DNA of 58,267 bases, the filler included, from Sphacelaria rigidula (Eukaryota), in NCBI GenBank assembly GCA_964200075.2. It is 9 parts of 9 records of this genome, joined end to end, with 100 filler letters (N's around TTAATTAATTAA, not from the genome) between each part and the next. Parts side by side here need not be neighbours in the genome. Positions count along the whole stretch, not along the records: positions 12,973 to 19,357 come from CAXNAA020020399.1; 8 more parts are not named here. One strand, 5' to 3'. The notes beneath the pieces were generated by a model. That model did not search any database. It was not told the origin of the DNA and saw only the letters and a list, made by a program, of their open reading frames with translations. The position numbers and the translations under genes are program-made. This document shows positions 4,677 to 57,295 of the stretch, in pieces. Numbering within the stretch: the first letter of the stretch is position 1; the number at the start of each line of letters is the position of its first letter.

Positions 4677-4927
4677 AACGGGGGAACAGAAACATCTGTC
4701 GACCTGGCTGAAGATGACGTGGAAGGGCTGAAGTGGGCCACTCATGCAGCCGCTACGAGGATCTCGATAAAATGGCCACACAACGGTGGTGTACCTGCGC
4801 GAGCTAACGCAAGTTTCACATTGTGTGGCCATTTTGTCAAGTCCTCGTAGCAGCTTCTTGAACGGCCGACTCCCGCCCTTGCGCATCATCATAAGCTAGG
4901 TCGACTGGTGTCTCGGCTCCTCCGTTC
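4677..4927. repeat. ~250-bp imperfect palindrome (foldback)
   Basis: 4677-4783 aligns with the reverse complement of about 4820-4927 (shared AACGG..GTCGACCT.GCT..GATGA..GCTACGAGGA..AAAATGGCCACACAA). Confidence 0.75.
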
Positions 4928-6310: not shown

Positions 6311-6386
6311 TCGTTTGATGCATTAGACAGTAGGGAGAGAACGATGGCTATACTAGGAGATAGATGGTGGCCAGAGACGGCGAAGC
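6311..6386 (+). mobile_element. 5'-truncated LINE 3' fragment (cut by contig end)
   Basis: Encodes ...LDSRERTMAILGDRWWPETAK, homologous to 16660-16720. It is preceded by a C-run at 6297-6309. Confidence 0.75.
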
Positions 6387-6486
6387 NNNNNNNNNNNNNN
6401 NNNNNNNNNNNNNNNNNNNNNNNNNNNNNNTTAATTAATTAANNNNNNNNNNNNNNNNNNNNNNNNNNNNNNNNNNNNNNNNNNNN
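6387..6486. other. Artificial contig linker
   Basis: N44-TTAATTAATTAA-N44 (six-frame stop spacer). Confidence 0.98.
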
Positions 6487-10228: not shown

Positions 10229-10398
10229 CACACCCTGGACAACATGTGGTCAATACTTTCGATACACAATAAACGTACTGCATAAAGTATAGGCCTATTG
10301 CGACTATTGTCGGCCGGCAATACTTGCAATAGGCCTATACTTTATGCAGTACGTTTATTGTGTATTACAAGTATTGACCACATATTGTCCAGGGTGTG
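10229..10398. mobile_element. hAT-type MITE, 170-bp near-perfect hairpin with 8-bp TSD
   Basis: TIR CACACCCTGGACAA / TTGTCCAGGGTGTG, with arms pairing almost to the centre. TSD CTGCCTAC at 10221-10228 and 10399-10406. Confidence 0.9.
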
Positions 10399-12872: not shown

Positions 12873-12972
12873 NNNNNNNNNNNNNNNNNNNNNNNNNNNN
12901 NNNNNNNNNNNNNNNNTTAATTAATTAANNNNNNNNNNNNNNNNNNNNNNNNNNNNNNNNNNNNNNNNNNNN
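12873..12972. other. Artificial contig linker
   Basis: N44-TTAATTAATTAA-N44. Confidence 0.98.
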
Positions 12973-13040
12973 CTTAGTCATTTGACCATTGACTAAGGCA
13001 AGCAACAAATGAGTACGCCCCCCCCCCCACCTCCCCCCAC
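12973..13040 (+). mobile_element. LINE extreme 3' end with C-run, fused to an inverted piece of the same element
   Basis: GACTAAGGCAAGCAACAAATGAGTACG is followed by C11. It is preceded by CTTAGTCATTTGACCATTGAC, the reverse complement of the family consensus. Confidence 0.75.
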
Positions 13041-15144
13041 CGCCCTTAACCGGCCCAAACAAGTAGGGAGGTGGGTGAACGTGGTAGCTTCTACGATCTG
13101 CAAAGGTGATTGGGGTGGGAAAGGGTGCGGGTATTGGTGCGTTTCGGGTACCGTTGAATACTCGATGTTGGTAGTGTTCGAAACCCCAGGTATTCGGTAG
13201 GACAAGTATGTCGAAAATTTCAGGGCAAGTTGCGGGCACGGTATCGTACGTGATGCTTGCTCGTGCTGCTGCTACTACTGCTACTACTGCTACTGCTGTT
13301 TCTGTGTTGTAATTCTAAGAATGACGGCGCTTTCTGAGTTTTTCGCTGATATGGGTGGCATTGGTGGGTGGAGCGTTATTATCAAGGGGTAAGCGTAGCT
13401 TGGCTTGGCTTGGCTTGGTGTACAGCCTTTCAAGAGCATTCGCTCTGCATGGACGAAGCCTTGTACCGCACGTGTTCTCGTGGTGGAGGTGTTGGTGAAT
13501 TCGTATTTAGCGGAAATCATGAAGTGGTACACACAAACTTGCTTATCTGACTTCTTTTTTGTTGTTGGTCCTCTCTCCTTTTGCTGGAATTTTCTTGAAT
13601 TTTTCCCGAGTAAGTTTGCCACCGAATTCCGCGTGTTTGAAACTACTTACTCTTCCGGGGCTGCAGACTAGAAGAGGAAGTATAGTGTACCTGCTTGTGT
13701 TTTGCACCCTGAAATGCATTGTTTCTGTGCAAAATCTCGCAGTGGAGAAAAACACGCCACATGCACTCCTTATGTTCGGAACTTTTGTGACATACTGTGT
13801 CAATCGGGGATACGTGCTGTGCCCGTGCCTGAAAATATGGAATGCAAGGGAAGTTATCTTCGCCTCATACCGGCCCGTGCACAGAGAGAGATTTCTCCAC
13901 ATTTGTATACCGTATTCTTGTTGAGCCAGATTTACACGGGTGCATCTGATCTAGTCATTTTTGTTCGTACGTATCTTTTCTGGGCTGCCCGTCCAACGTT
14001 GTCAAGGCGGTTGGGGACTCCTCCCTCCCTCAGTACCCCCATGTAGTCGGTGCGCGCGCCGAAACTCAAATCTCCAGCTATGGCGACATGGCACCCGCTC
14101 AATCGAATCTTGACCGACACATTTGCCCTTCACCGAACAACACAACAATCAATTTTGGAGTGTCCACGGCAAAAAAAAAAAGTCTGATTGTGTCCGCCCT
14201 AGGCGCCTACCAACTTGTCGGGGTTTGCGGGGGAACTGTGTGGCGATTTCGTGCTCTTCTTCCACGACTATTAATACTCCACAAACGAACCAAAGTGTTG
14301 ACGGGGTGGTGGCGGAAATGGACGGTTCTCCCGTGTCGAAGACATGAGAACATCGCTCAGCACCAGTATCCCGGGAAAACCCGCGTTGTATGTCCACGGA
14401 CAGTGTTTGGGAAGAATAATGACTGCACCTCATGTGCCTGTGCAAATCTGGCCTAACTAAGATATGTTGTAGATTATTGTGGAACTTCTGGCGTACGGGA
14501 AGCCAGCACACTTTATATAGGGTGCATGCAGGCGCGATGTAGAAAAGAAGCGGGCAACGCGATATACAGACAGCACAGCTTTCTGACGCTCTGCATTCAG
14601 GAGGATGCGAAGCAAATTTGAAGTACGTGGAGTTTTGCACCGCCTCTACTGTCCATGAGCGCGTTGGCAATTCGATCGCCCACCCCAACACGCAACTCCG
14701 TCGGTGGTCTCTGCCGCAAAATTAGATGCCCAAGTTTTCGCCAACAAAAAAGAAAAATATCATGCCAAAAGAGGGGTGGTGTCGGTTTTCTATAACTGCA
14801 GTGTATGTATCGCTGTACTCCGTTCGTGATTTATGCCGCAAGGTTGAGTAGATAGCTGGGAATGAACCATCCGGAGTTCACGTTGTTCTGTGAAAAGTGG
14901 CATCTGGCACGATTGTCTGTTACATGGGAGTTACGTGCCCCTTCGTTCATTCCGCCGCTAGTTTCGTTCGAAAAAGCTAAGCTTTCCAATTTTTTACCCT
15001 GCCCGCCGCGCGCAACTAATTAAAAATGGACTGGAAGCCATCTGAGAACATAACTGCTGTGGACGTATCTGATACGGCCTCGTAGCGACCGATTTAATTT
15101 GACCGCATGTTTTCGAGTCGAAAATAAATTGATAAGACACGGTA

Positions 15145-15490
15145 TCAACCTTGGGAACCTTCATGAACATGTAAATGTTTTCGAAAAAGGGATGCAAATG
15201 CAGTCCCCGGCTGTGATGTGTGGCCTCGCTCATCCTCGAAAACAAATCCTTCCGCAGCTTATTTTAAAATGTCATGTTAACGGGGCTCTGTGACAAGAAA
15301 GGACAATTTCTTGTACGGGAATGAACGAAGGTGAAAATTTTTGGGGGATGAACACGGGCTTCTACAACGTGCGGATGGATTATCTCGGGAACGGGCGACG
15401 CCACACATCACGGTCGGAGAGTGCATTCGCATTTTTTTTCCTAATTCGAAAACATTTCGCTGCTCACGATGAAGGTTCCCCAAGTTCATC
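15145..15490. repeat. Diverged inverted repeat / foldback element
   Basis: 15148-15265 aligns with the reverse complement of about 15368-15488 (AACCTTGGGAACCTTCAT..AAATGTTTTCGAA..GTGATGTGTGGC). Confidence 0.7.
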
Positions 15491-16447
15491 CTCGAAAAAG
15501 ATCGATCCACAATCTGCAAAATCCCGTGATATTATCTTGATGGGTCGATCATGATCGGTACATACAATCGTGGAACAGTGGTGAGACACGCACACACGTG
15601 CAACATGTAAGATATGTCTATGCATGCTGTAGTGTGTCTTCCATCTGTATTTGAATGTAATCCCCCCCACCCCCCCCCCCCCCCCCCCCCCCCCCTCTCC
15701 AACCCCCCTCTTTCTTCTTTCCTATTTGNNNNNNNNNNTCAACTTGTCTTTCTTTTTTCTTTCGCTTTTGTTTTGTCTCTTTTTTTTTTTTTATTTATTC
15801 CCCCCCCCCCCCCCCCCCTGTCCAAACCAGGCTTTATTCTTTTCGTTTAGGTCGTTATCCGGGAGCCGAGCTTTCGTCTGATATCTCAGCAATACGAATT
15901 AATGAGTGTAGGTGTTAATGACGCAGTTAGTCACTCCCGACTTCGTGTTTTTCTCTCGTGACTTGTTCGAAATTCTTCATCCCTGAACTACTCCAATGAC
16001 CTTCGGCCCTAGGTTCACAGGCGTGGTTGCACCACTTTACCATGACATCGGCAGGCATGACTGATTCTTGTGCTGTCACCGTTGCGAACGCGTACAACAG
16101 CCGCGCCAGTGGTCAATGGACTTGATTGATTGACACACGTAATCTGATCCCCTACGACATTCAGCGGTGGCCTATCACAAGGAATAGTATCCAAGGCGCA
16201 AATAAACGGAAAGGAAAATAAGAAAAATCGCGGGAGGAAACTCGGGTAGAAAACTATGAACATGAAGAAGATGGAAAGAGGGCGAGGGAAACGGAGGAAA
16301 TAGATAGCACGGGCTAAATGGACTGCAAACGAAAATGTTGACAATCATCACAAGCATGACCCCAAAAGTATACTACGGTACAGTACACCGTTTTCTTCCA
16401 TCCTTTGCCTTGGAAGGAATCAGATCACCCGGTTACCCCCTCCCCCG

Positions 16448-16889
16448 GTGGGGGACCCGGACCTGCCAGAAAGAAAAAATATATTTACCAGTCGTCGAAA
16501 GGAGGAGGAAGTAGATGGACAGAACTGTCCCTGTGGCAAAGGAATCGAGAGCAGGGATCATATAGGGGCAGAGTGTGAGCTATACAAGCAAGAACGGGAC
16601 GTGCTAGAGGGGGGAAATGCGGGACGTGAACAAAGATAGCATGAAATGTTTTTATGCTTCAGACAGTAGGAAGAAAACGATAGCTAAACCAGGAGATAGA
16701 TGGTGGCCAGAGACGGCGAAACAGGACGGGGATAAGATATGTAAAAGGTTTCTGTGTAATGTATGGAAGAAACGTATTGAGCGCCGGAGTGTTGAAGGTG
16801 TCTCTAATATGAGTGGGAACGGTGCTCCGTCTCAAAAGGGATGCGTGGTCAGTGGTCAAACGACCAAGGCAAACAACAAATGAGTAGGG
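16448..16889 (+). mobile_element. 5'-truncated LINE: ORF2 C-terminus with CCHC-like zinc motif and 3' end followed by C tract
   Basis: Reads CPCGKGIESRDHIGAEC (CxCx7Hx4C), then a frameshift, then GDRWWPETAK...KGCVVSGQTTKANNK-stop. There are six other homologous fragments in the window. Confidence 0.8.
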
Positions 16890-16927
16890 CCACCAACACC
16901 CCGCCCACCCCCCCTACACCCCCCCCC

Positions 16928-16958
<31 letters not shown>

Positions 16959-16959
16959 G

Positions 16960-17148
16960 ACAATGGACCTACCCCTTATGAGCGGCGGAGATAGTAAGCG
17001 AGTCAACAACAGCAACAAGGAAGAGTTCGTCACCCTCGCCACGAAGCGCCGTTTGCTGGGCGGCGCGGATGCGATGATGACGGCCATGCGCTCCGGTGTG
17101 ACGGACGTGATTCCCAAAAACCTGCTCGCTGTGCTCCTGCCCTCTGAG
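16960..17148 (+). CDS. Internal exon of a HECT-domain E3 ubiquitin ligase
   Basis: cccag|ACA...GAG|gtacgc, 63 codons. DLPLMSGGDSKRVNNSNKEEFVTLATKRRLL...MRSGVTDVIPKNLLAVLLPSE matches the HECT N-lobe pattern (L.pGG..i.Vt..Nk.eyv...f..Gf..vip..ll..f...E). Confidence 0.85.
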
Positions 17149-17329
17149 GTACGCTTCCGTTTCTTTGTTTTTTCTCGTGTGTGCGTTTTTTCGTGAAGAG
17201 GAAATTTCCTGTAAAAACTGGGGAGCGATGTTTGTTTCTGGATAAATACATTAAGCAGGGAAGGGAGGGACCGTGACTTCACCAACCTGCCCCCCCCCAG
17301 TGCCCTGACTACATCCCCCCGCAACAATC

Positions 17330-19357
17330 AACATGAACAAGCTGGAGATACTCTCGAAAGAGATTGAGAGAGAGAGACGGCAAGGAAGGGCGGAGGGAGA
17401 AGTAAAGAGTGGTCGGGCAGAGCATTAGAAGTGCTGGTATTTGGAGTCCGTGGTGACATGATGAAAATAGGGTTGAAAAGGAAATGCAATGGAGTTGGAT
17501 TATACAGTTTTGCAAGAGAAGAAGTAAAAAGGGAGAGAGAACACTTACGAGTCACGCTGAAGCAGAGCGCGAGCAAGGAGTGGGAAACGTTAGAGACCGG
17601 TGAAGTGTCAGCATGGCTTAGAAGGGTAGGATGGAGAGTATGCATAGCTACTGGAACAACAAACCTAAGACGTAGTCCACGGGTAAACGGGGTGAAAGAG
17701 GGGTAGGAACAGGTAAGTGTCCGGAAGGGGAACGGGGGGGACATAGCGGCCGGAAGCAAATGGACAAAAACCAAACCGCAAACGGGAAGAAAATCAAGCA
17801 AGGGAAAGTAGAAGTAAAAGCGACAATGAGGGAATAGTAGACAACAGGAGAGCAGACAATGATTCGGAAAGGAAGTTGAGCATAGGATCGGGGAACGTGT
17901 GTGGATTCGCCACAGTCAAGCGCGAAAAAATGGAGATGGCGCTATGAGTAAGAAACCGCGACCTAGATACCGTAGGAATCGAAGAGTCATGGGAGAAAGA
18001 GGGGGCGGAAATAGAATGCAAATTGAAGAGTACGCATGGACAGCGAAACAGCGGAAGGGACAGAAGCCCAAGAGCAAGGGAGCGGGGGGAGTAGGATTTT
18101 TCGTCAAGGGGTAGCTGTGTGGCAGTATAGAAGTGATCGACGACATTATTTCGACAAGGCCGTATGGATGAGGGTACCAGGAGAGCGGGGAACGAAGGAC
18201 TTCTTCGTAGAAAACATCTACATGCCCCCAGGATCGAAGAGTGGGGTGGACGATATACAGCGGAGGTTTGGGGAGATCGCAGCAGATGTATTCAAGTATA
18301 AAAGGCAAGTGAAAGCGATGTTGGTGTGAAATTTCAACGCAAGGGCAGGAAAAGCAGGTCAACCGGATTATATCATCGGGGCAATGCGGGGAAGATGGGA
18401 AGAACACAAATGGGGTAGAAATGCTCAAGTTCCTTGAGCATAACGAGATGAAGACGCTGAACGATAGAGCATAAAAGTCAGAGGCGCAATGGACATGGAC
18501 CAGGAAATTCAAAGACGAGAGAGAACGCTCCATTCTTGACTCAATAGTGGTGAAGCATGGAAATAGTTACGAAATGAAAGTACATGTATGCGCGGAGGAC
18601 GTGGGAACCACAGATCATTGCCCAATATGGACATGAAGCCATCAGACGAGAGCCAGAAGAAATAGGCGGAGTAGGAAGTTGTACAAATGGAGAGTCGGTT
18701 AACTAGACTTGGAAGAAAAACAGCAAGAGTTCCAAGAAGAGATGGCCAAGATTGCAGTGATTTTATTAACTATTGGAACGCGTAGGTAAAGTTGATACCG
18801 AGATGGAAAGAGATCGGGCAGGAGCGACGATTATAGGAGGATGGGAGCAGTTGGTCAGGAACACAGCGAGTAAAGTCATGGGGAAGAAACTGATCGTATG
18901 CAACAGAGCAGTAGAATGGTGGGATGAGAAGGTAAAATAAGCTAAAATAGTAAGGAGAGAGGCCTACGCGAGATGCATATCGAGTTAAACTACGGCAGGA
19001 TGAGAGGAGTATACTCTAGCTCGAAAGGAAAGGGAATATCGGGAAGGTGTAGTGAGTGAGGGTTTCGATGGCGGGATGAAAAAAATGTGGGCAGGGATAA
19101 AACGAAGATCGGGAAACCAGGCGGGAAATATGGACGAGGGGATAGCTACACTTCGGGGACAAAACGGTAAAATGGTCAGTAGTTCGAAGGGAAAGAGAGG
19201 AATGCTAGTCGTGCACTCCCGTAAACTACGAACGCCGAAAACTAACACGAAGTTCGACACGGAATTCGAAAAAGAGATTAACCCGTGGGCAAAGGCAAAT
19301 GTAGAGACGTGGAAACGGGAGGATAGTGGCTCGACAGAATTGCAGAGAGAGATTACA
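17330..19357 (+). pseudogene. Decayed LINE: ORF1 remnant, APE-type endonuclease and linker (RT lost at contig end)
   Basis: Endonuclease motifs appear in order: IGSGNVCG (17882), GIEESW, GAGGVGFFVK, NIYMPP, xNFNA, SILDSIVV, TTDHCPIW (18607-18630), then WWDEKVK. There are many stops and frameshifts. Confidence 0.85.
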
Positions 19358-20407: not shown

Positions 20408-21063
20408 TGATTATTCAACACCTTTTCATTTGAGCAGTTTCCCTTGCCGTATTTTTGTGTCTGATTTTATCATCACACGACGGTGTCATGTCCCAGCTGG
20501 CGATAGCTTTGTTGACTTCACCTCGACTGATTTGAAAAATCATGGCATACCACTTGATGTCGAATACAGCCGTGCATGTGTCCTCCTGGTTTGGGCTGTT
20601 TCCAGTCACTTGTATTTGGGATTTGGGGGCCGGAGGAAGCCGACGGCGAGAGTTAGGGTAGTCTGTTTTCCATTATTTTAGCAGCTGCTCTGCTCGCGGC
20701 GACAACGATTTGAGTATCCTGGTGTGCAGGTTGAGCGGTACCCATAATATTCTACGCCTTCGATAACGTCTAGACTCAACCTGTGCACATGTTTTGTGTC
20801 CCTGCTATAGTGTTGCATGCACTTGCATCTTCGTTGTCTCTTGCCCGCCTACAGCAGTCTCAAGTACGAGGAAAGACTACACAAAAAATACACAAGACTT
20901 GACGACCCGGCTCTGCGATATCTTCATTTCATAGTCAGTCGTCTTGGACGAATTGACTTACTCGTCTCGAGAATAACTACCGACCAACCACCGTGTTTCG
21001 TTTTTCCCGTGGGTGCGAACGCCGGTCACATTCTGCGTTCGTTTACACGGTGTATCCATCCAG

Positions 21064-21239
21064 GGCTGAAGTACGAAGACTTGTTCTTCGATGATGATCC
21101 GGCAGTGAAGGAGGCGATCAGACGCCTCACCCCAGAGCAGAAGCTCGCCCGCGAGCGCCGTCTTTTCAGGGCGATGGACATCTCCCTCAAGCGCGTGCCC
21201 CTACCCGAGCACATCCAGAAGGCCCACGATCCCTTCGAG
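21064..21239 (+). CDS. QCR7: Cytochrome b-c1 complex subunit 7, internal exon
   Basis: ccag|GG...GAG|gtgaaa. GLKYEDLFFDDDPAVKEAIRRLTPEQKLARERRLFRAMDISLKRVPLP matches QCR7/UQCRB (GL.YdDl..e...V.EAlrRLp....aR..Rl.RA.dlSlk...LP). Exon 1 was not found on this contig. Confidence 0.92.
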
Positions 21240-21834
21240 GTGAAACGCTTTATAAAAGGATTTTGAGTGTGGCGCTGTAATATTTCCGACGACAACCCTT
21301 TGTTTGGTGTGGTCGAGGTCAGCGATTGTGATTATTGCTTTGATTGAGCCTGCACACTCAGTAAAACCGTCCTTCATCTGCACTAAAACCATGAACGAGA
21401 AAAAAGCTGTGGCCAACATGTTCGCGGCTCCGCAGGGGAAGGCACCTGCGAAATACGGAGACTTCAACACAGTTTAAGATGCGAATCGCTCGCAATACAT
21501 GTAGGAATTTCCCCCCAAAAGTGTCGTGGCTCTTCCGGATGGATGAGTCAAGCTAGCCAATCAGAAGCAAAGGGTCCGTCCGGTCGGTTCCAAGTGAACG
21601 CCGGAAGGCCTCCTGCGCACGCTACACACAATGCCGCAGGTACAGTGCTCATAGTCGTACTGATTTTTTTTGAAGGGAAGATTATTCGATGCAGATGGCC
21701 CACCCTCGGGGTGACTATAGACAAACCTGAATCGAAACAGAATACAGAAGCAACAGGAGTACAATGCAGTACAAAAGCTGTGTGGTACAGTGCAGTGTTG
21801 TCTCATTCCCCCCCCCCGCCCGCCGCTGATTTAC

Positions 21835-37758: not shown

Positions 37759-37795
37759 GCCGGGCGGGAGGGCGTACTCATGCCGGGCGGGAGGG
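37759..37795 (-). mobile_element. 9-nt LINE 3'-terminal insertion with 14-bp TSD
   Basis: GCCGGGCGGGAGGG - CGTACTCAT - GCCGGGCGGGAGGG. The insert is the reverse complement of the family terminus ATGAGTACG. Confidence 0.7.
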
Positions 37796-38600: not shown

Positions 38601-38812
38601 CTACCCTTGCACTCTTTCACTTCATCTCTAGTAAACCCTCTCTGCAATTCTGTCGAGCCACTATCTTCCCGTTTCGACGCCTCTACAATTGCCGTTGCCC
38701 ACGCATTGATTTTTTTTCGAATTCCTTGTCGAACTCCGTGCTTGTTTCTGGGGTTCCTAGTTTACGGTAATGCTCGACTAGCATTTCTCTCTTCCCCTTC
38801 GAAATACCGACC

Positions 38813-39256: not shown

Positions 39257-41370
39257 CAGCAGCAGTAACAACAAAATAACGACAAACACAAAGACAAACA
39301 CAAGGACGAACAAAGACAAAAAGGATGATGATCGTGCATTACGTAGCTGATTGCAACACTCCAGCTCGTAATCAGAAACAAAAAGGAGAAACATGAAAAA
39401 AAGCGGACGCAGGTGAACTTCTATGCCACGCGCGGCACGCGGTGCCGCGATATGTTCAACCGCCTTTTCCGATTGAGTGCTATCTAGCTCTTGATTGGGT
39501 GTGAGCTTCGAGTGGGAGGCCGTTGCTTCCATGTATCCCATTAATGGATGGAACGCTAACATGTGTGACTTCTATGTATAAATGATGCCGATTCAAAGTA
39601 TCATCTACCCTAGCGGTCAAAGTAGATGCTCCTCCGATTTAAAAGTTGAATGTGCAGGTCTAGGGTATCAACCCGCCGAGATTCCAAAGAATGTATATTA
39701 CGTAATATTTGTTTTATTTCGGGTTATATATCCAACGACTACCTCTTCGAGATTATAACCATTTTACCGTGAGGGTTAACAATCTGGGTCGCGCTGTAAA
39801 TTTTCAAGTGAAAATCATGCCGATTCCATCAATAGACACCAGCGGCGCTGAGTGTTCGTTTGTGGAATCAGCATCAGTTTCACTTCTTTCTCGAGTAAAT
39901 GGCTGACAAGCTCATACTCAGTCGAATCCTAGACACTCAATCTGGAGAAAAAATTGCTGCTTACACTCAAATCGACACCGTAGGACAACCACACCCTCGA
40001 CAACAGATTACGTTGTCAAAAAGTGTACTGCGTACAGTAGCGACTGTTACGTGTGTTTGTCGTAATAGGCAAAAGATTCCATACTGTACGCAGTACACTT
40101 TTGAACAAAGCAATCTATCGTTCAGGGTGTAGGGACAACACATCCCTTGGCTACGTAGGACATGGTCGCTGGCCGAGTCTTCGGTCTGCTTTCGCCGGGG
40201 TTAGTATTAGGGCCGGCGTTACATTGTAATTGGGGCAGTCTGTGGAGAAGATTCGGACACGTGTTTCTACCCACGATTTATGAAACAGGCCTTGGAGGGG
40301 GGGGGGGAAATGCCAATGCTTGCACCACAGGGCCTGAGATAGGGCGGGAAAAATGTGAGTACTGAGCTTTCAGAGCTCCAAGAGAACAAAATGCGGTATA
40401 AGCGCGAACATAATTTGTTGCTCAGTACACATATATAATACATGTTTGGATGGCAGTGTGTTTCGGTGGATGAACAGGTGTGCCGCGAGCGGGGAATGGG
40501 ACAGGGAGAAGAGATAGAGCTCCCGTCACGCTGGCGACTGATGACGTGTCCGGGCAGAGAGGCCCGTCGCGCACGTGCGAGAGAGAGAGAGTATGGGAGC
40601 GAAACAGCACAAACGTTCTGTCTCCTAAATTATCGGAATGGACGAAGGGCTCGGACGGAAAACGAATGTACTCTAGTTCTAAGTGAGAACTCGCGAGCGC
40701 GCCGAATACTAGTCTGTGACATGTCGAGAGAGTTTTTCTCCTGGGCTCCGAGGAAATTTTCTAATATATAATTAGGTTATGCGTAGGGTGACACCACGAT
40801 AACCCCCCACACACTCAAACAAACCAGGCCCAAAACTTTCACGAAGAAAATGGACATACAAACAACACTTAAGTTATCGTTTCAGACTGCATGAAGCGCG
40901 CCTCGACCGGGTGAAAATGACGAAAATGATCCCGAGCGTGCGAGTCCCCGGCTGCCCCATGTGCTCGGCTTCTGTCACTTTGATTTGCATGAATATTTTG
41001 CCTCCTCGAACCAGTCCCTTTTCTGGGGGGAGCAATCGCGGCATCACGCCGTAGCTGTGTATGAAAACCATCATTATTACATGTGGACGCCCTGACTCTA
41101 ATGCAGCGCTTGTACCGTTTGACTACTCATTCATTTGTTTCCCTCCCCATCGGATAGCACAGGTGGTGATAACCGTTCCAAGTACACCGTGTTGGAAAGA
41201 CGATGCCGTCATTTCCAGCCGAACGCGGAAAGATACCTGACAGGAAATCGCGAAGACCATGCGTCAGCTTCGTAGCAGTTTTTTTTCGTGGCGTCATTAC
41301 ACACCGCCCCTACTTGGTACGTCCCCGAGAGTCGCTCGCGCAACGCAATGCATTCAGCACTACTAGTTAC

Positions 41371-47352: not shown

Positions 47353-50299
47353 TTAAACCACTGCCTCTTCGAAGTTACTGATTATACCCTGCATCAAGTT
47401 CATTTCACCGGCGCTACCCGCCTTCGCGAGCGGAGTCCACCACGAATCGTCTCCTTCCTCCTCAGCGGCAGGTGCCGGCACGGAGACGCCTCCGCCTGCG
47501 GCTTGCTCCGGTGCCCACCCCGCGTCGCCACTGCTGTCGGCTGCTATCCCTCCGAACAAGTCATCTTTCACCCCCGACAGCAGTTGTTGCTGTTGCTGAT
47601 GTTGGGCGCCCAGCTCGGGAAATTGAGACTGCGCCAGGGGAGGGAGGGGGGCGCTGTGACGGCGACGCAGCTGCTGACCTTTGGTCGCGCGTGCCATCGC
47701 CGCCGCCTCTGCCACCTGCTCGTCCATGCTGGTGACGTTGTTGCTTAGCTCCTTACCACCGCTGCTGTTGCTGTTCACGCGCCCGTTCCACCGTACCCCC
47801 GACTCGGCCGAACTCAAGGACGACAAGACGCCGCCGACTTTAGTTAGGTCAGAATCGGACACATCGGACATGCCCGTCGAGGCACGCCGAGGAATCTCCG
47901 AGAGTTGCGGCGGCAGCTGCTGCTGCAAAGGTTTGTTCGATTTCTCTCCGCCCAAGACTTGGCTCAATACGCCGCCGTCTCCACCAGAACCATGAAGAGG
48001 GGCCGAGATCCAGGTTTTGCTCGATGTGCGATGGTGGCTTCGATTGGACCCGTTCAATGGAGACGTCGAGCGCATCGCGGCGCTTGCCGCTGGCGCCGGA
48101 AAGTACGTCCGTTCGTTGCCACCACCATCCAGCGGCGGGAGACCTACACGCGGCGACAGCGCTGCAGACGGAGACTTGGGAAAACGCTCGGGGAACGCCT
48201 TGCCCCCGACCCGCCGCGCCTTTGGGCTCGGTGCCCCGCGGCCGGTTCCGCCGGTACCGTCTCCGTTAGGGGAGGGCAGGCCAAACTCAGGGAACGCTTC
48301 CTCTCCTCTCCGTCGAGCCTTCGGACTGGGGCCGGTCCCCACCCGGCCGCCGGGCTGGACATAAACGCCACTTCCACCCATGCGGCCTCCGACCGCGGTG
48401 CTCCCCTGTGGTGTTGTCGGCGGGCGCGGTGATGAGCCCACCCTGGGGCTGATGCCCCCACCGAGACCTTGAGACAACCACGGCACATTTCCGCCGCGCG
48501 AGGACTTGCTGGGAGTGTACGCCCGAGGCGGCACTTGGTTTCGGGGCCTGCCCAGCCCGCGGGGCCCCGGGCGGGGCGCCCCGTTCCCCGAGCCCTGGAC
48601 GAGTGAACTGTTGCCGGAACCCGCGCAGTTGACGGGCGAAGCTGTGGCGGCGTGAATGGGAGACGCGCCGCCAAACATTTGCTGCTGACCGAAGAGTTGG
48701 GGAGACCCGACACCTCCGGAGGCTAAGCTCCGCGGCGTACCCCGCTGGCCATTCGTTCCTCGTGGGAGAGGTGGCAAACTAGCGCCGACGTTCTGTAGGT
48801 CTGGGAACGTGTTGTTACCATTGAGATCCGGGAATGGACCGGGGACATCCTCACCCTCCAGCAGCTCGTCCATGACGCCGAAGCTTTCCATGAGCAGGGC
48901 GTCCTCCAGCTCTTGTAGGTCCTCAGGGGACACTCCTACGGGATCCGAGGTCCCACCACCGCTGCCTGCCTTGTTGCCAGTGGCGGTCGCCGATTTTTGT
49001 GCACTCCCCACAGATGAGTCAACGCCAACAACGCCGTCTCCCGCCCCAGTTTCTAGATGCTGCTGAGAACCGCAGGAAGGCTCATCGTCATCGTCATCGT
49101 CGAACTCGAGGAGGTGCGAAGTATCCAGGCTCTCGACATCCGTCGAAGCCAGAGACGATGTGGTGGACAAGGACTTCTGAGGTCGTTGGCGACGGGGGTG
49201 AGAGGAGTGAATGGATTGCATTTGAGTCTGACCCCAGTGGCTTACACGAGGCGCGGAGGGCCGCCTTGACGCCCCGGCGGCCGGAGCAGACTTGGCCCCT
49301 TCCGGCATGACGAACATTCCCGTCATGGCATCCACTTTCCCCCCGATCTGTTGCAGGCCACCCGCCCGCATCATCCTGTTGTGCCTCGCGATATACTGCT
49401 CGGCTGTTGTCGGCGACAAACAGTGTTTCGCCGCGGGCGAGAACCCTCCCGGGAAAGAAGCCCCGGGCGAAATACGATCACCGCCGCCGGGACTTGTGCC
49501 CGCCACAAGGGTATCACAGCTGCTCACCGGGCTGTCGAAAAGCGACTGCTCCAGGGGCATCGGTTCCTGAAGAAAACTGCCACTTTCAAGGCCGTGTCGC
49601 GCAGGCGCAGACAGTGGTGGGCCCTGGGACAGGACGCGGGTCCCACCGGGGGTGTGCTGCTGCTGTCGCGCCTGCCAGTGTTGACCCTTCGTGGATGATC
49701 CGGATCCCGCGTAAGCCGCGTTGTTGTGGCCCCAACCCACACGCGCGGGGTCCTCGCCAATGCCGCTGTTCCCATTCCCAAGGTTGCTAAGTGCTGGTGA
49801 GACGCTGGTCGTCCCGGACGCCGACGATCCCGGCCGGTTAACGCTGCCGTATGCCTGGGCCAGATTGGCCGTGTACTCTTCGTGCGACGTAGCGATCGCG
49901 TCCACGAGGGCTGGGGGGCGGGCGCCTCGCCGGGCGCCCGGGCGAGCCATGACGTCGCCCACTGAGGCGGAGCGTCCCAAGGATTGTGACGATGGGTTGG
50001 ACGAGGACGAGGACGGTGCACCGTTGGTTTGCACGCAGGCCGGCAGTGAACCATCGCGCTGGACGGTGGCAATGAGCTCGACGAGCGGCTTGCCCTTGAC
50101 GCGCTTGCGCTTCGTGATGGTCTTAAGGGCGGCGCTGAGCTTAGGCATAAGCTCCGGGTTTCCAAATATGTCCTCCTCAGAGACGTTGTCGGTGTCGGCC
50201 AGGTACAGCGCATTGCGGACGTTGGGGTCAACGCCCGCGGCAGCGCCGCGGGTGATTAGTCGCTTCTTCTTCAGGGCGGCCTCGATCAGCTTGCGAAAT
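47353..50299 (-). CDS. ~2.9-kb terminal exon of an uncharacterised protein (basic helical N-part plus long S/G/P-rich disordered region)
   Basis: 998-codon ORF. The likely acceptor is acgcag|ATTTCGC. It reads FRKLIEAALKKKRLITRG...KLSAALKTITKRKRVKGKPL and then becomes low complexity. Confidence 0.88.
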
Positions 50300-50520
50300 C
50301 TGCGTCGTTCGGTTGTTCGGCACATGGGGATCGTTCGTCTCGGGAGCATTTAGCACTGCAGGTTTGTATCCCAGTATATTTCGCCTTACCATTTACAAAA
50401 TGTTTGGGCATGCCGAGTGTACAGGTCATGACAAAAGGAGGCGAGAAGTGCAAACTACCGTGAAAAAAAGCAAGAGACGGGCACGTGTCAGACGGCGGCT
50501 GAGCGATGGACCCACCTCAA

Positions 50521-51900: not shown

Positions 51901-51978
51901 AGGGGTTGGGGTTGTACTCATTTGTGGCTTGCCTTGGTCGTATGACCATTAACCACGCATCCCTTTCGAGACGGAGCG
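51901..51978 (-). mobile_element. LINE 3' fragment with C-rich tail
   Basis: APSRKGCVVNGHTTKASHK-stop followed by GTACAACCCCAACCCC. Confidence 0.8.
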
Positions 51979-53814: not shown

Positions 53815-53908
53815 CATCAATAGAGGGCGGGGGGGCGTACTCATTTGTTGCTTGCCTTAGTCGTTTGACCATTGATCATACCTCCCTTACGAGATGCATC
53901 CATAGAGG
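53815..53908 (-). mobile_element. LINE 3' fragment (~61 nt) with C tail and TSD
   Basis: Ends ...AACAAATGAGTACG followed by a short C-run. It is flanked by CATC(A/C)ATAGAGG at 53815-53826 and 53897-53908. Confidence 0.8.
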
Positions 53909-56020
53909 AGAAGGTCGAGGAAAAATACCCAACAGCACACGCCGGGGGCTACAAAAAACGTCACCCCGGTGTGGTCGGGCCATTGTCGTCCAATAAGAGC
54001 ATGCTCCGGGTGGAGTGTTCACCATCGCATTCATGTCGTCATATCATCGGTCAGTCGTAGCATGATAAAAATCCCATACCGCAAATCGTCAGCATGAGGT
54101 CTAGCAGTTCCCGGGTTCAGCATGTCGCGTTTGTGGAGGTGACAGCAGCATGCAGGAGCATGCAAAGTTGTAAACCCCATGCTGTACAGATTGTTATCCT
54201 GTACGTACTATTAATGTGAATAATGGATGGTGACGATGACCATGTAAGCGAGCGGCACCCCGCTCTCCGTGCCCTGTTGTACATATCGCGGCTTTTCGTC
54301 ATGCGTAAATGAGCAGACAGGGAGGGAGGGCTGTGTTATCGTCTTCCTCCACTGGCGGCAGCATCAGCCAATTAGCCAAGCCAAGAGATAGCTTTGGTCT
54401 AGCCTTGACTCGACACGTTTATTCCTTCATCTCAGAAAAATTGCTGCTCGAGCTGTGAGTCAGGTAGAATTATGAGTTTTGTCTATCAGTTCTCGCTTGC
54501 CGAAGGTGATTCTGGCGTCTGACTGTGAGTAAAGCGTTACTAGGCCCATTATGTTTCAAAGCACATGATGCTGGTTAGATCGTCTATCGTGTAGCCCGTG
54601 CAAGGAGGGAGGGGCCGTTGACGGCATGCCCGAAACAGGGAAAGGATGTATCAGTGCGAAATTGTAAGTGGCCCAGCTCACGCCTGCGGCATACATGAAG
54701 GTTGTGTTCATTGTTACTGTACAAAATATGACACGCCCTCCAGGTGCTGATAATGGATTGCTGTACGCGTGGAGGACAATAGTGCTTGATAGCGTGCTAC
54801 TTATTATTTTGTGTCCCCCGGCTGTCTGTACTGTCGGCTCGTACTGTGTATGAACAAAAGGCAGCGAACCGGTCGACAATGCGTGACGTTGCCGTCCATT
54901 GCTGCGGGTGTGCGGATCTGAGAATCCAGCGTTCTGTCTAATATACCGGATAAAAAAACTGGTAATGCATCAACCACAGTTGCACGGAATATCGTCAGTC
55001 CGAAATTGCCAGTCTTTATACAAAGAGCTCCCAAAAGGGTTAGCAGCGCTTTTTAAAATCATCGGCACCCCAGTTCATTACTCGGCGCAGTCTCGCTCAC
55101 GCCCCCCAAAGGTTGGTGAGGGGGCCTCACCGGAGGGGCCGCCTGATCCAAGGAAGTGTTGAAGCTCAAGATCGTGTCACTTGGCTTGCGGTCAAATTGT
55201 GCTCGGAACTATTGCTTTTCCGGGTGACATGGCGTGCCCGTGTACGAAAACGCGGAGATGTTTTTTTAGGATTTTCATAGAAAATAATGGAGCAGAACCC
55301 CTGCTCGATTTCGAGACAAGTGAGGCGTAGATTTTCGCTTTACATCGCGTTCATGGGGCACATGCTTTGCAAGTGGTGCACGCTGGGCAATACTACTGCT
55401 GCAACATGCGCGGAGACAACATACCGTCCGCCGATGCTTTCGCATTCTTGGCACTTTGCGGGCGATACCGGCATACCTAGAGCATGTTTTAAAATAGTGC
55501 TGCAATGCGTGTCACATCGTCTCGACTGCGCCGTTCGGCACTGCTGCTGTACCACACAGACAGTACTCCTTCACCGGTCGCGAAGCACAGCAGTACAGGA
55601 CAATTCTTGTGCCAGTGCCCTCCACTGCACACAATCTACGCCGTTCTCGTCTCTGCATGAGTGTTTACAACACTGTCCACTACCTCAACAACACAGCAGG
55701 TGACAGACAGTTGGCAAAAACTGCCCAAAAGAGTAAAAACCACCCCATGTTTTGTGACCCTGAACTACTCAGTGTGTTGCTACATAAATGGTGAGACAAA
55801 GTTTGACTGCGAGACAAGCAGTGACAGGTGACCGTTCGGAGAACATAACCGACCATTTGACAAATCGAAAGTATCGAGATAATCACGGCTCTCCCTCATT
55901 AGCCCGCATCTTATCCAAACACTTCCTGGGGACACGCATGGTTGATCTGACCGTATACTCGGCTGATACGTGAACCCTACCCCTCCCCTTCGAAAAAAAG
56001 CACATCCACCCCCTCGCTTT

Positions 56021-56109
56021 GCTCCGTCTCGAAAGGGATGCGTTGTCAATGGTCAGATAACTAAGGCGAGCAACAGATGGATACGCCCCCCCCCCCCCCC
56101 CCCCTCCCC
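56021..56109 (+). mobile_element. LINE 3' fragment with long C-run
   Basis: GCTCCGTCTCGAAAGGGATGCG...CAACAGATGGATACG followed by a C-run of about 18 nt. Confidence 0.8.
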
Positions 56110-57024: not shown

Positions 57025-57295
57025 GCAAAACTCCACGCCGTTTTGAAGAGTTAGACACTGAAATTTAGCACGAATGTTATATGGGTCATTACGCAACTCA
57101 GCAGGAACGTTTGTTTCTTTTTTTACTTTTTCACCGTTTTTCGGGGGTCCCAGTTTTTCTGCGGAAACTTCGACCGAATCGGACCCCCGTAAAACGGTAA
57201 CAAAAAAAAAAAAACGTTCCTGCAAAGTTGCGTAATGTCCCAAAGCACAGTTGTGCAAGACTTCAGGGTCTAACTCCTTTAAACGGCGTGAAGTT
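57025..57295. repeat. ~270-bp imperfect palindrome (foldback/MITE)
   Basis: CACGCCGTTT..GAGTTAGAC.CTGAA..CATTACGCAACT..GCAGGAACGTTT..ACCGTTTT.CGGGGGTCC is mirrored at 57181-57292. A related partial copy lies at 57510-57600. Confidence 0.8.

Follow-up and report, generated by a model that had tools for sequence, protein, structure and literature searches.

In the window, by which we mean the whole 58,267-nucleotide stretch of Sphacelaria rigidula DNA analysed here, a 5'-truncated LINE is followed by a C-rich tract that leads into the predicted acceptor of a HECT-domain exon on the same strand (Table 1). The window is made up of nine unrelated contigs of ~6.4 kb, sorted by length and set apart by N44-TTAATTAATTAA-N44 spacers (joints at 6387-6486, 12873-12972 and six more); adjacency across these joints carries no meaning. 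The LINE/HECT locus lies on G000:C20399 (window 12973-19357), and the genome assembly to which it belongs is fragmented (27,214 contigs, 244 Mb). Elsewhere the window holds an exon of the cytochrome bc1 14-kDa subunit (20811-21266, +; PF02271, E 1.2e-12), a GC-rich open frame of 998 codons (47353-50349, -) and MITE-like short palindromes or inverted repeats (10229-10398, 57029-57295, 4677-4926, 39991-40130 and 15144-15489). Beyond the window, G000:C1, a contig of more than 110 kb on which tRNA- and rRNA-like sequences lie in an inverted repeat, is likely the plastid genome.

Table 1. Features of the LINE/HECT locus and of a minimal insertion of the same LINE family (positions in the window)
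Feature	Position	Strand	Basis or remark
C-rich 5' flank, 10/11 C	16436..16446	+	Sequence; probable upstream TSD copy
RTE-X-like LINE, 5'-truncated	16447..16888	+	tblastn with P0002 and copy alignment
C-rich tract, 68 nt, 58 C (85%)	16890..16957	+	Pure C only in 16929-16957 (29 nt)
Predicted acceptor AG	16958..16959	+	No other AG from 16888 to 16966; ranked first as exon start by the exon model
HECT-domain exon, 63 codons (189 nt open frame), phase 0 at both ends	16960..17148	+	PF00632
Donor GT	17149..17150	+	Three RNA-like contigs leave the genome exactly at 17148
Second LINE copy, same family, longer, broken, in the next intron	17296..19357	+	P0002 match; contig end cuts the copy
Minimal insertion (37773 scar), on another contig than the HECT locus	37759..37795	-	Sequence

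An earlier note on this DNA had described the tract as running into the CAG of an intact HECT exon on the LINE's strand, and this description held. The exon matches the Pfam HECT domain with an E-value of 2.6e-9, is open throughout, has GT-AG borders (the acceptor as predicted) and is covered by RNA-like contigs. An exon model based on codon and splice-site signals, trained without the focal contig, ranked it first with a score of 31.6 (the threshold of 15 is reached by 7% of wrong-strand controls). The RNA-like contigs (3107, 1946 and 3109 nt; runs X1, X3 and X8 from two studies) match 16966-17148 with zero differences and extend off the focal contig at both ends; their RNA status is an automatic guess for X1 and X3, X8 is unlabelled, and none of the runs is on record as RNA. 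Since the left edge at 16966, which the DNA-like run X5 shares, reflects a repeat that was skipped in contig matching, the junction 16959/16960 has no direct reading and the acceptor stays predicted. The HECT exon is likely spliced. According to parts of a preprint on brown-algal genomes, most introns in this group are GT-AG and ancient (bioRxiv 10.1101/2024.02.19.579948). We also observed intronless HECT domains at G000:C265:2648-3487 and C1408:1985-2920, though genes in this genome are intron-rich; these are possibly retrocopies or large exons.

The LINE was identified with P0002, a protein of 1360 aa encoded by a single ORF, in which an AP endonuclease is followed by a reverse transcriptase (PF03372, PF14529 and PF00078). 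P0002 shares 83% identity with an RT segment from the LINE family and aligns to both copies in the HECT gene region, from aa 2 to aa 1360. At the focal copy, 16448-16880 correspond to aa 1217-1360, i.e., the final 144 codons of its EN-RT reading frame, in a fragment disrupted by a frameshift and stops. The stop codon TGA occupies 16881-16883 and the element ends 5 nt later, while the 5' junction was placed at 16444-16447; the fragment previously reported at 16448-16889 is thus a real element, but its end is at 16888, not 16889. The last 200 nt are ~90% identical to 29 further copies. The second copy, also sense, matches aa 2-671 of P0002 over 17383-19357 and begins within a C9 run (17290-17298); because other copies continue upstream of 17296, its start is a truncation junction. 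All copies of this LINE that we examined in the genome are broken. An exact 24-nt end motif (the element end plus C4) occurs 2,821 times genome-wide, versus 0 times for the reversed control. A second, non-coding end family (35 ends, alignable to ~560 nt) has ~34 of the 45 terminal bases in common with the LINE, and protein comparison gave no ORF matches inside this family. Another EN-RT LINE family, RTE-like and broken by frameshifts, was seen at L087 (3196-5500 of G000:C21302).

Next, we considered whether the C run belongs to the element or to its target. The run had been described as ~70 nt of almost pure C and taken for the element's tail. A tract of this size is present, with 58 C in 68 nt, but pure C makes up only 29 nt of it. 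At the family level, C-rich DNA follows 128 of 144 distinct ends, as compared to 779 of 12,693 random places (6%), and it also precedes the element in 60 of the 102 copies with both junctions, against a background of 1,360/12,644 (11%). TSD scores of at least 12 were obtained for 6/102 copies versus 2.9% of permuted pairs, an excess that is weak because C-rich flanks resemble each other anyway. Where TSDs are clear, the number of extra bases after the element end is 2 (L002), 0 (L013), 3 (L135) and 0 (the 37773 scar). The C-rich stretch after ends has a median of 12 nt, which is about the length of a TSD, and the focal stretch is the longest of 76 (69 nt by that measure). The C-rich flanks on both sides, the clear TSDs and the nesting described below indicate that C-tracts are the target of the family and that any tail it adds is short. 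Some genuine short C tail is likely, given the higher share of C-rich flanks on the 3' than on the 5' side (89% vs 59%). A long C tail as a property of the family was accordingly rejected, and the tail reading of the earlier note is not supported. The note's suggestion that C-rich TSDs leave a tract downstream of the insertion, by contrast, agrees with the clear TSD cases.

If the focal element had arrived with a long poly(C) tail, now the polypyrimidine tract in place of the original one, and if such tails fed the long C runs of the genome, the 11 C-rich bases of the 5' flank against 68 downstream would leave room for a tail of up to ~55 nt at this copy; the greater C-richness of 3' flanks would fit as well, as would the (C)n 3' end annotated for Ectocarpus RTEX-1 in the relevant passages of PMC12477816. 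We regard this account as highly improbable, given that insertions with clear TSDs add only 0-3 nt, that the median tract is 12 nt, and that an element end lies within 60 nt upstream of only 12 of 96 runs of at least 10 C, 4 of 41 of at least 15 and 2 of 15 of at least 20. This count omits copies of the TSD on the 5' side, the inclusion of which could about double the 4/41. By this count the element was rejected as the main source of the long C homopolymers in this genome, a role suggested as possible in the earlier note. For the focal copy itself, the best match of the 5' flank in the 3' tract (12/14, ~16915-16928; score 9) does not exceed low-complexity chance and so places no TSD, and a longer tail may exist at this copy. 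Likely the tract represents the target site together with the host polypyrimidine tract, and at most part of it a tail or later slippage.

Assembly or sequencing might also have produced a pure C run of false length, the real tract being an ordinary one of 10-40 nt. The assembly is fragmented and several C runs at the loci examined adjoin N gaps, but the DNA-like contig of X5 has 88 bases upstream of 16966, which is space for a long tract. We consider such an artefact improbable, and it would alter the length of the tract only, leaving the layout unchanged.

The 37773 scar provides the smallest insertion of the family: its nine terminal bases (37773-37781) are flanked on each side by the same C-rich direct repeat of 14 nt, and no C tail has been added. 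It had been cited as a second sense-oriented insertion just upstream of an acceptor. The scar and its 14-nt repeats are real, but the exon proposed downstream scored 12.7, below the threshold of 15, has no Pfam match and is unconfirmed. Short pieces of the LINE family were further observed at 12975-13017 (+), 56020-56085 (+), 53836-53894 (-), 51913-51977 (-), 37820 (-), 6314-6385 and 38609-38812 (-), and C-rich DNA follows their 3' ends. Scoring with the exon model revealed no convincing exon behind the ends at 13017, 56085 and 53836. In L003, L021, L023, L107 and L168, copies are nested head-to-tail in the C-tract behind an older copy, so that each LINE insertion creates a new target for nesting. 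The LINE also inserts into another abundant repeat, which starts with TAG or TAA plus a C run (e.g., G000:C7:41484-41558, C8:2049-2121 and C89:2225-2297).

Brown-algal LINEs with these properties have been annotated before. In passages of PMC12477816, the Ectocarpus elements RTEX-1, -2, -N1 and -N2 are described with a (C)n 3' end or termini, C-rich TSDs and tandem copies, RTE-X with a single EN-RT ORF and a full length of 5.5-5.9 kb, and the RTE or CRE LINEs with a (CAA)n or (CA)n 3' end. The Sphacelaria family has the single ORF with AP endonuclease then RT (P0002), the (C)n 3' end (at 128/144 ends, and in the 2,821 end-plus-C4 matches), the C-rich TSD (in the four clear cases and the 60/102 C-rich 5' flanks, not at the focal copy) and a short non-autonomous partner with a common 3' end (the second end family). 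An assignment to the RTE or CRE type was rejected, since (CAA)n or (CA)n ends are absent and the ends are followed by ~80% C over the first 6 positions. Among 19 matches to an RT piece was an Ectocarpus protein with 78% identity. Compared by annotated features rather than by consensus sequences, the family is likely of the brown-algal RTE-X kind: it resembles RTEX-1_Ec32, RTEX-2_Ec32 and the non-autonomous RTEX-N1/N2, as presented in parts of PMC12477816, in the EN-RT ORF, the (C)n end and the C-rich TSD, and likewise in its thousands of copies, a short non-coding partner with a common 3' end and tandem copies, while it differs in belonging to another genome and in having older copies (~82-90% alike). 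C-rich targeting is therefore already known for the RTE-X kind from the Ectocarpus annotation. Those passages of PMC12477816 contain no test of orientation or of splice-site distance for RTE-X, and our literature search did not find the position of RTE-X relative to splice acceptors reported.

We then examined whether acceptors are favoured over other C-tracts, as the earlier note had proposed in suggesting that C-rich acceptor tracts may be the element's preferred niche. The first sample comprised 245 Pfam exon matches (HECT, kinase, kinesin and mitochondrial carrier) on 134 contigs (533 kb), of which 185 predicted acceptors were retained after exclusion of the focal acceptor, of 49 with a long upstream open frame, of 8 that shared an exon with the match before them and of 2 lacking any candidate AG. 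The detector of element ends found 69 ends versus 4 on the reversed sequence. Within 200 nt upstream of the 185 acceptors there were 12 sense ends (on 11 contigs; one of the 12 doubtful) and 0 antisense ends; away from acceptors, this sample had no sense bias (26 sense : 25 antisense). Sense C-tracts are themselves ~2.4-fold denser in the last 100 nt of introns (25.7 per 10 kb vs ~11 elsewhere). Quantification of tract occupancy revealed an element end at 12 of 63 C-tracts within 200 nt of acceptors and at 45 of 872 others (p 2e-4), with an odds ratio of 3.9 (p 0.0025) when adjusted for tract composition and a p of 0.002 after pooling with 40 extra acceptors. The 12:0 contrast with antisense ends near acceptors was discarded as biased, since the 5' end of an antisense copy faces the acceptor, and antisense ends near donors were used instead. 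With 189 predicted donors, this control gave 12 sense versus 2 antisense ends within 200 nt (p 0.007), 8 versus 1 at 100 nt (p 0.02) and 13 versus 6 at 300 nt (p 0.11). The LINE-at-acceptor layout occurs at ~3% of predicted acceptors (7-8/225 within 100 nt). Copies near acceptors did not differ in length from the others (p 0.84). Beside the remaining ends, a search for unrecognised exons gave 0-1 for the 20 sense ends and 3-4 for the 22 antisense ends; as these were partly known exons with another donor, the comparison says little. None of four candidate branch-point words was enriched 15-60 nt upstream of the 185 predicted acceptors, so the position of the branch point is not inferable from sequence.

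This initial excess did not recur. Around 40 further acceptors (7,793 nt) there was no sense end and none of the 17 tracts was occupied, where 2.7 ends were expected at the first-sample rate (P 0.07) and 0.5 at background; the power of this replication was low, as 40 exons were run instead of 100. Among 57 ends at loci chosen for carrying the element, sense ends near acceptors versus antisense ends near donors within 200 nt numbered 1:1 at an exon-model threshold of 20 (sensitivity 0.70) and 4:5 at a threshold of 15. For a genome-wide count, the acceptor word CAGG (present at 87/185 predicted acceptors) was compared to the matched control ACGG downstream of intact element ends on the one hand and of ordinary C5 runs on the other. 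In the interval of 25-55 nt, the CAGG/ACGG counts were 642/724 for element ends and 6507/7263 for ordinary C-tracts; at 56-86 nt they were 830/716 and 8259/7222, both CAGG counts in this interval being inflated by another repeat with a C run at its start (~8/100 and ~13/100 of the rows listed, judged by eye). The ratios of ratios were 0.99 and 1.01, pooled 1.00 (0.93-1.08), i.e., this count gave no acceptor preference, and it did not support the enrichment of ends near acceptors over ordinary C-tracts that would follow from the earlier note. An enrichment of the size in the first sample, 6-7-fold, predicts a ratio of ~1.08-1.17 if 80,000-140,000 acceptors are assumed (our pre-stated expectation of 1.2 was too high against this recomputed range), and a 4-fold enrichment predicts 1.03-1.06, which is compatible with the observed ratio; the count covers well-preserved ends only and is disturbed by other repeats.

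A mild residual enrichment at acceptors is thus possible. Sense copies could be inserted or retained there 2-4 times more often than the supply of C-tracts would provide, be it that these tracts persist under selection and are exposed longer, that deletions next to 3' splice sites are purged, or that the element end takes the place of the branch point. The 12 sense : 0 antisense ends and the odds ratio of the first sample speak for such an effect, as do the 9:0 within 150 nt obtained on anchoring to Pfam match starts instead of predicted acceptors and the restriction of the genome-wide count to well-preserved ends. We nonetheless judge it unlikely, considering that the 200-nt window was picked after looking, that one of the 12 ends is doubtful, that the 40 further acceptors had no occupied tract and the 57 independent ends no excess, that the genome-wide ratio was 1.00 and that no branch-point word was enriched. 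A stronger proposal, in which RTE-X ends are several-fold enriched, in sense only, upstream of brown-algal 3' splice sites as long-lived safe C-tract targets, with their last 30 nt serving as branch point at thousands of introns, appears quite unlikely to us.

Acceptors are probably hit about in proportion to their C-tracts, in line with the genome-wide ratio and the two replications without excess. We conclude that a very abundant LINE, present at this locus as a 5'-truncated copy, probably landed on the 5' edge of a C-rich acceptor tract that already existed, its family targeting C-tracts wherever they are located. The LINE at the HECT acceptor is thus probably a passive hit by a known kind of LINE and is mostly ordinary.

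How such an insertion might arise can be outlined as follows. We infer that the AP endonuclease would nick the G-rich strand. The element RNA, which would end 5 nt past the stop codon, could carry a few C bases by read-through into the flank of the donor copy, as suggested by the 5-nt 3' UTR and by the lack of poly(A) in the copies seen. By pairing with the G run at the nick, these terminal C bases might start target-primed reverse transcription, so that the element would land at or inside the 5' part of the C-tract, with ~14-19 nt duplicated. Because all DNA downstream of the nick would remain host DNA, a sense insertion would keep both the tract and the AG, and no repair would be needed for splicing to go on as before. 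Mammalian L1 and Alu elements use A-tail/T-tract priming, in which a homopolymer that terminates the RNA base-pairs with the cut strand of the target, and antisense Alu U-tracts serve as acceptor tracts. The Sphacelaria family resembles them in the proposed homopolymer priming and in the association of a retroelement with the pyrimidine run of a 3' splice site, but with C/G in place of A/T and in sense rather than antisense orientation; unlike with Alu, the tract here likely stems from the host and belongs to an exon that was already there, and no new exon is made. Targeted insertion into (C)n repeats, which obscures TSDs, is also described for the Chlamys Penelope-like elements in passages of PMC8557442; those combine a GIY-YIG endonuclease with a PLE-type RT, in contrast to the AP-type endonuclease followed by a LINE RT in the family studied here.

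The locus is a clear example of how a LINE that targets C-tracts can enter the tract of a splice acceptor without removing it. It adds evidence at the level of TSDs that the (C)n end of this LINE family is mainly target, which refines, and does not change, the annotation of RTE-X in Ectocarpus. If a residual enrichment should prove true in an annotated genome, 3' splice sites would be a safe harbour for a LINE, and transposon targeting would be linked to the great length of brown-algal introns; and if the branch-point reading were true, the end of a LINE would be a working part of a host splice signal.
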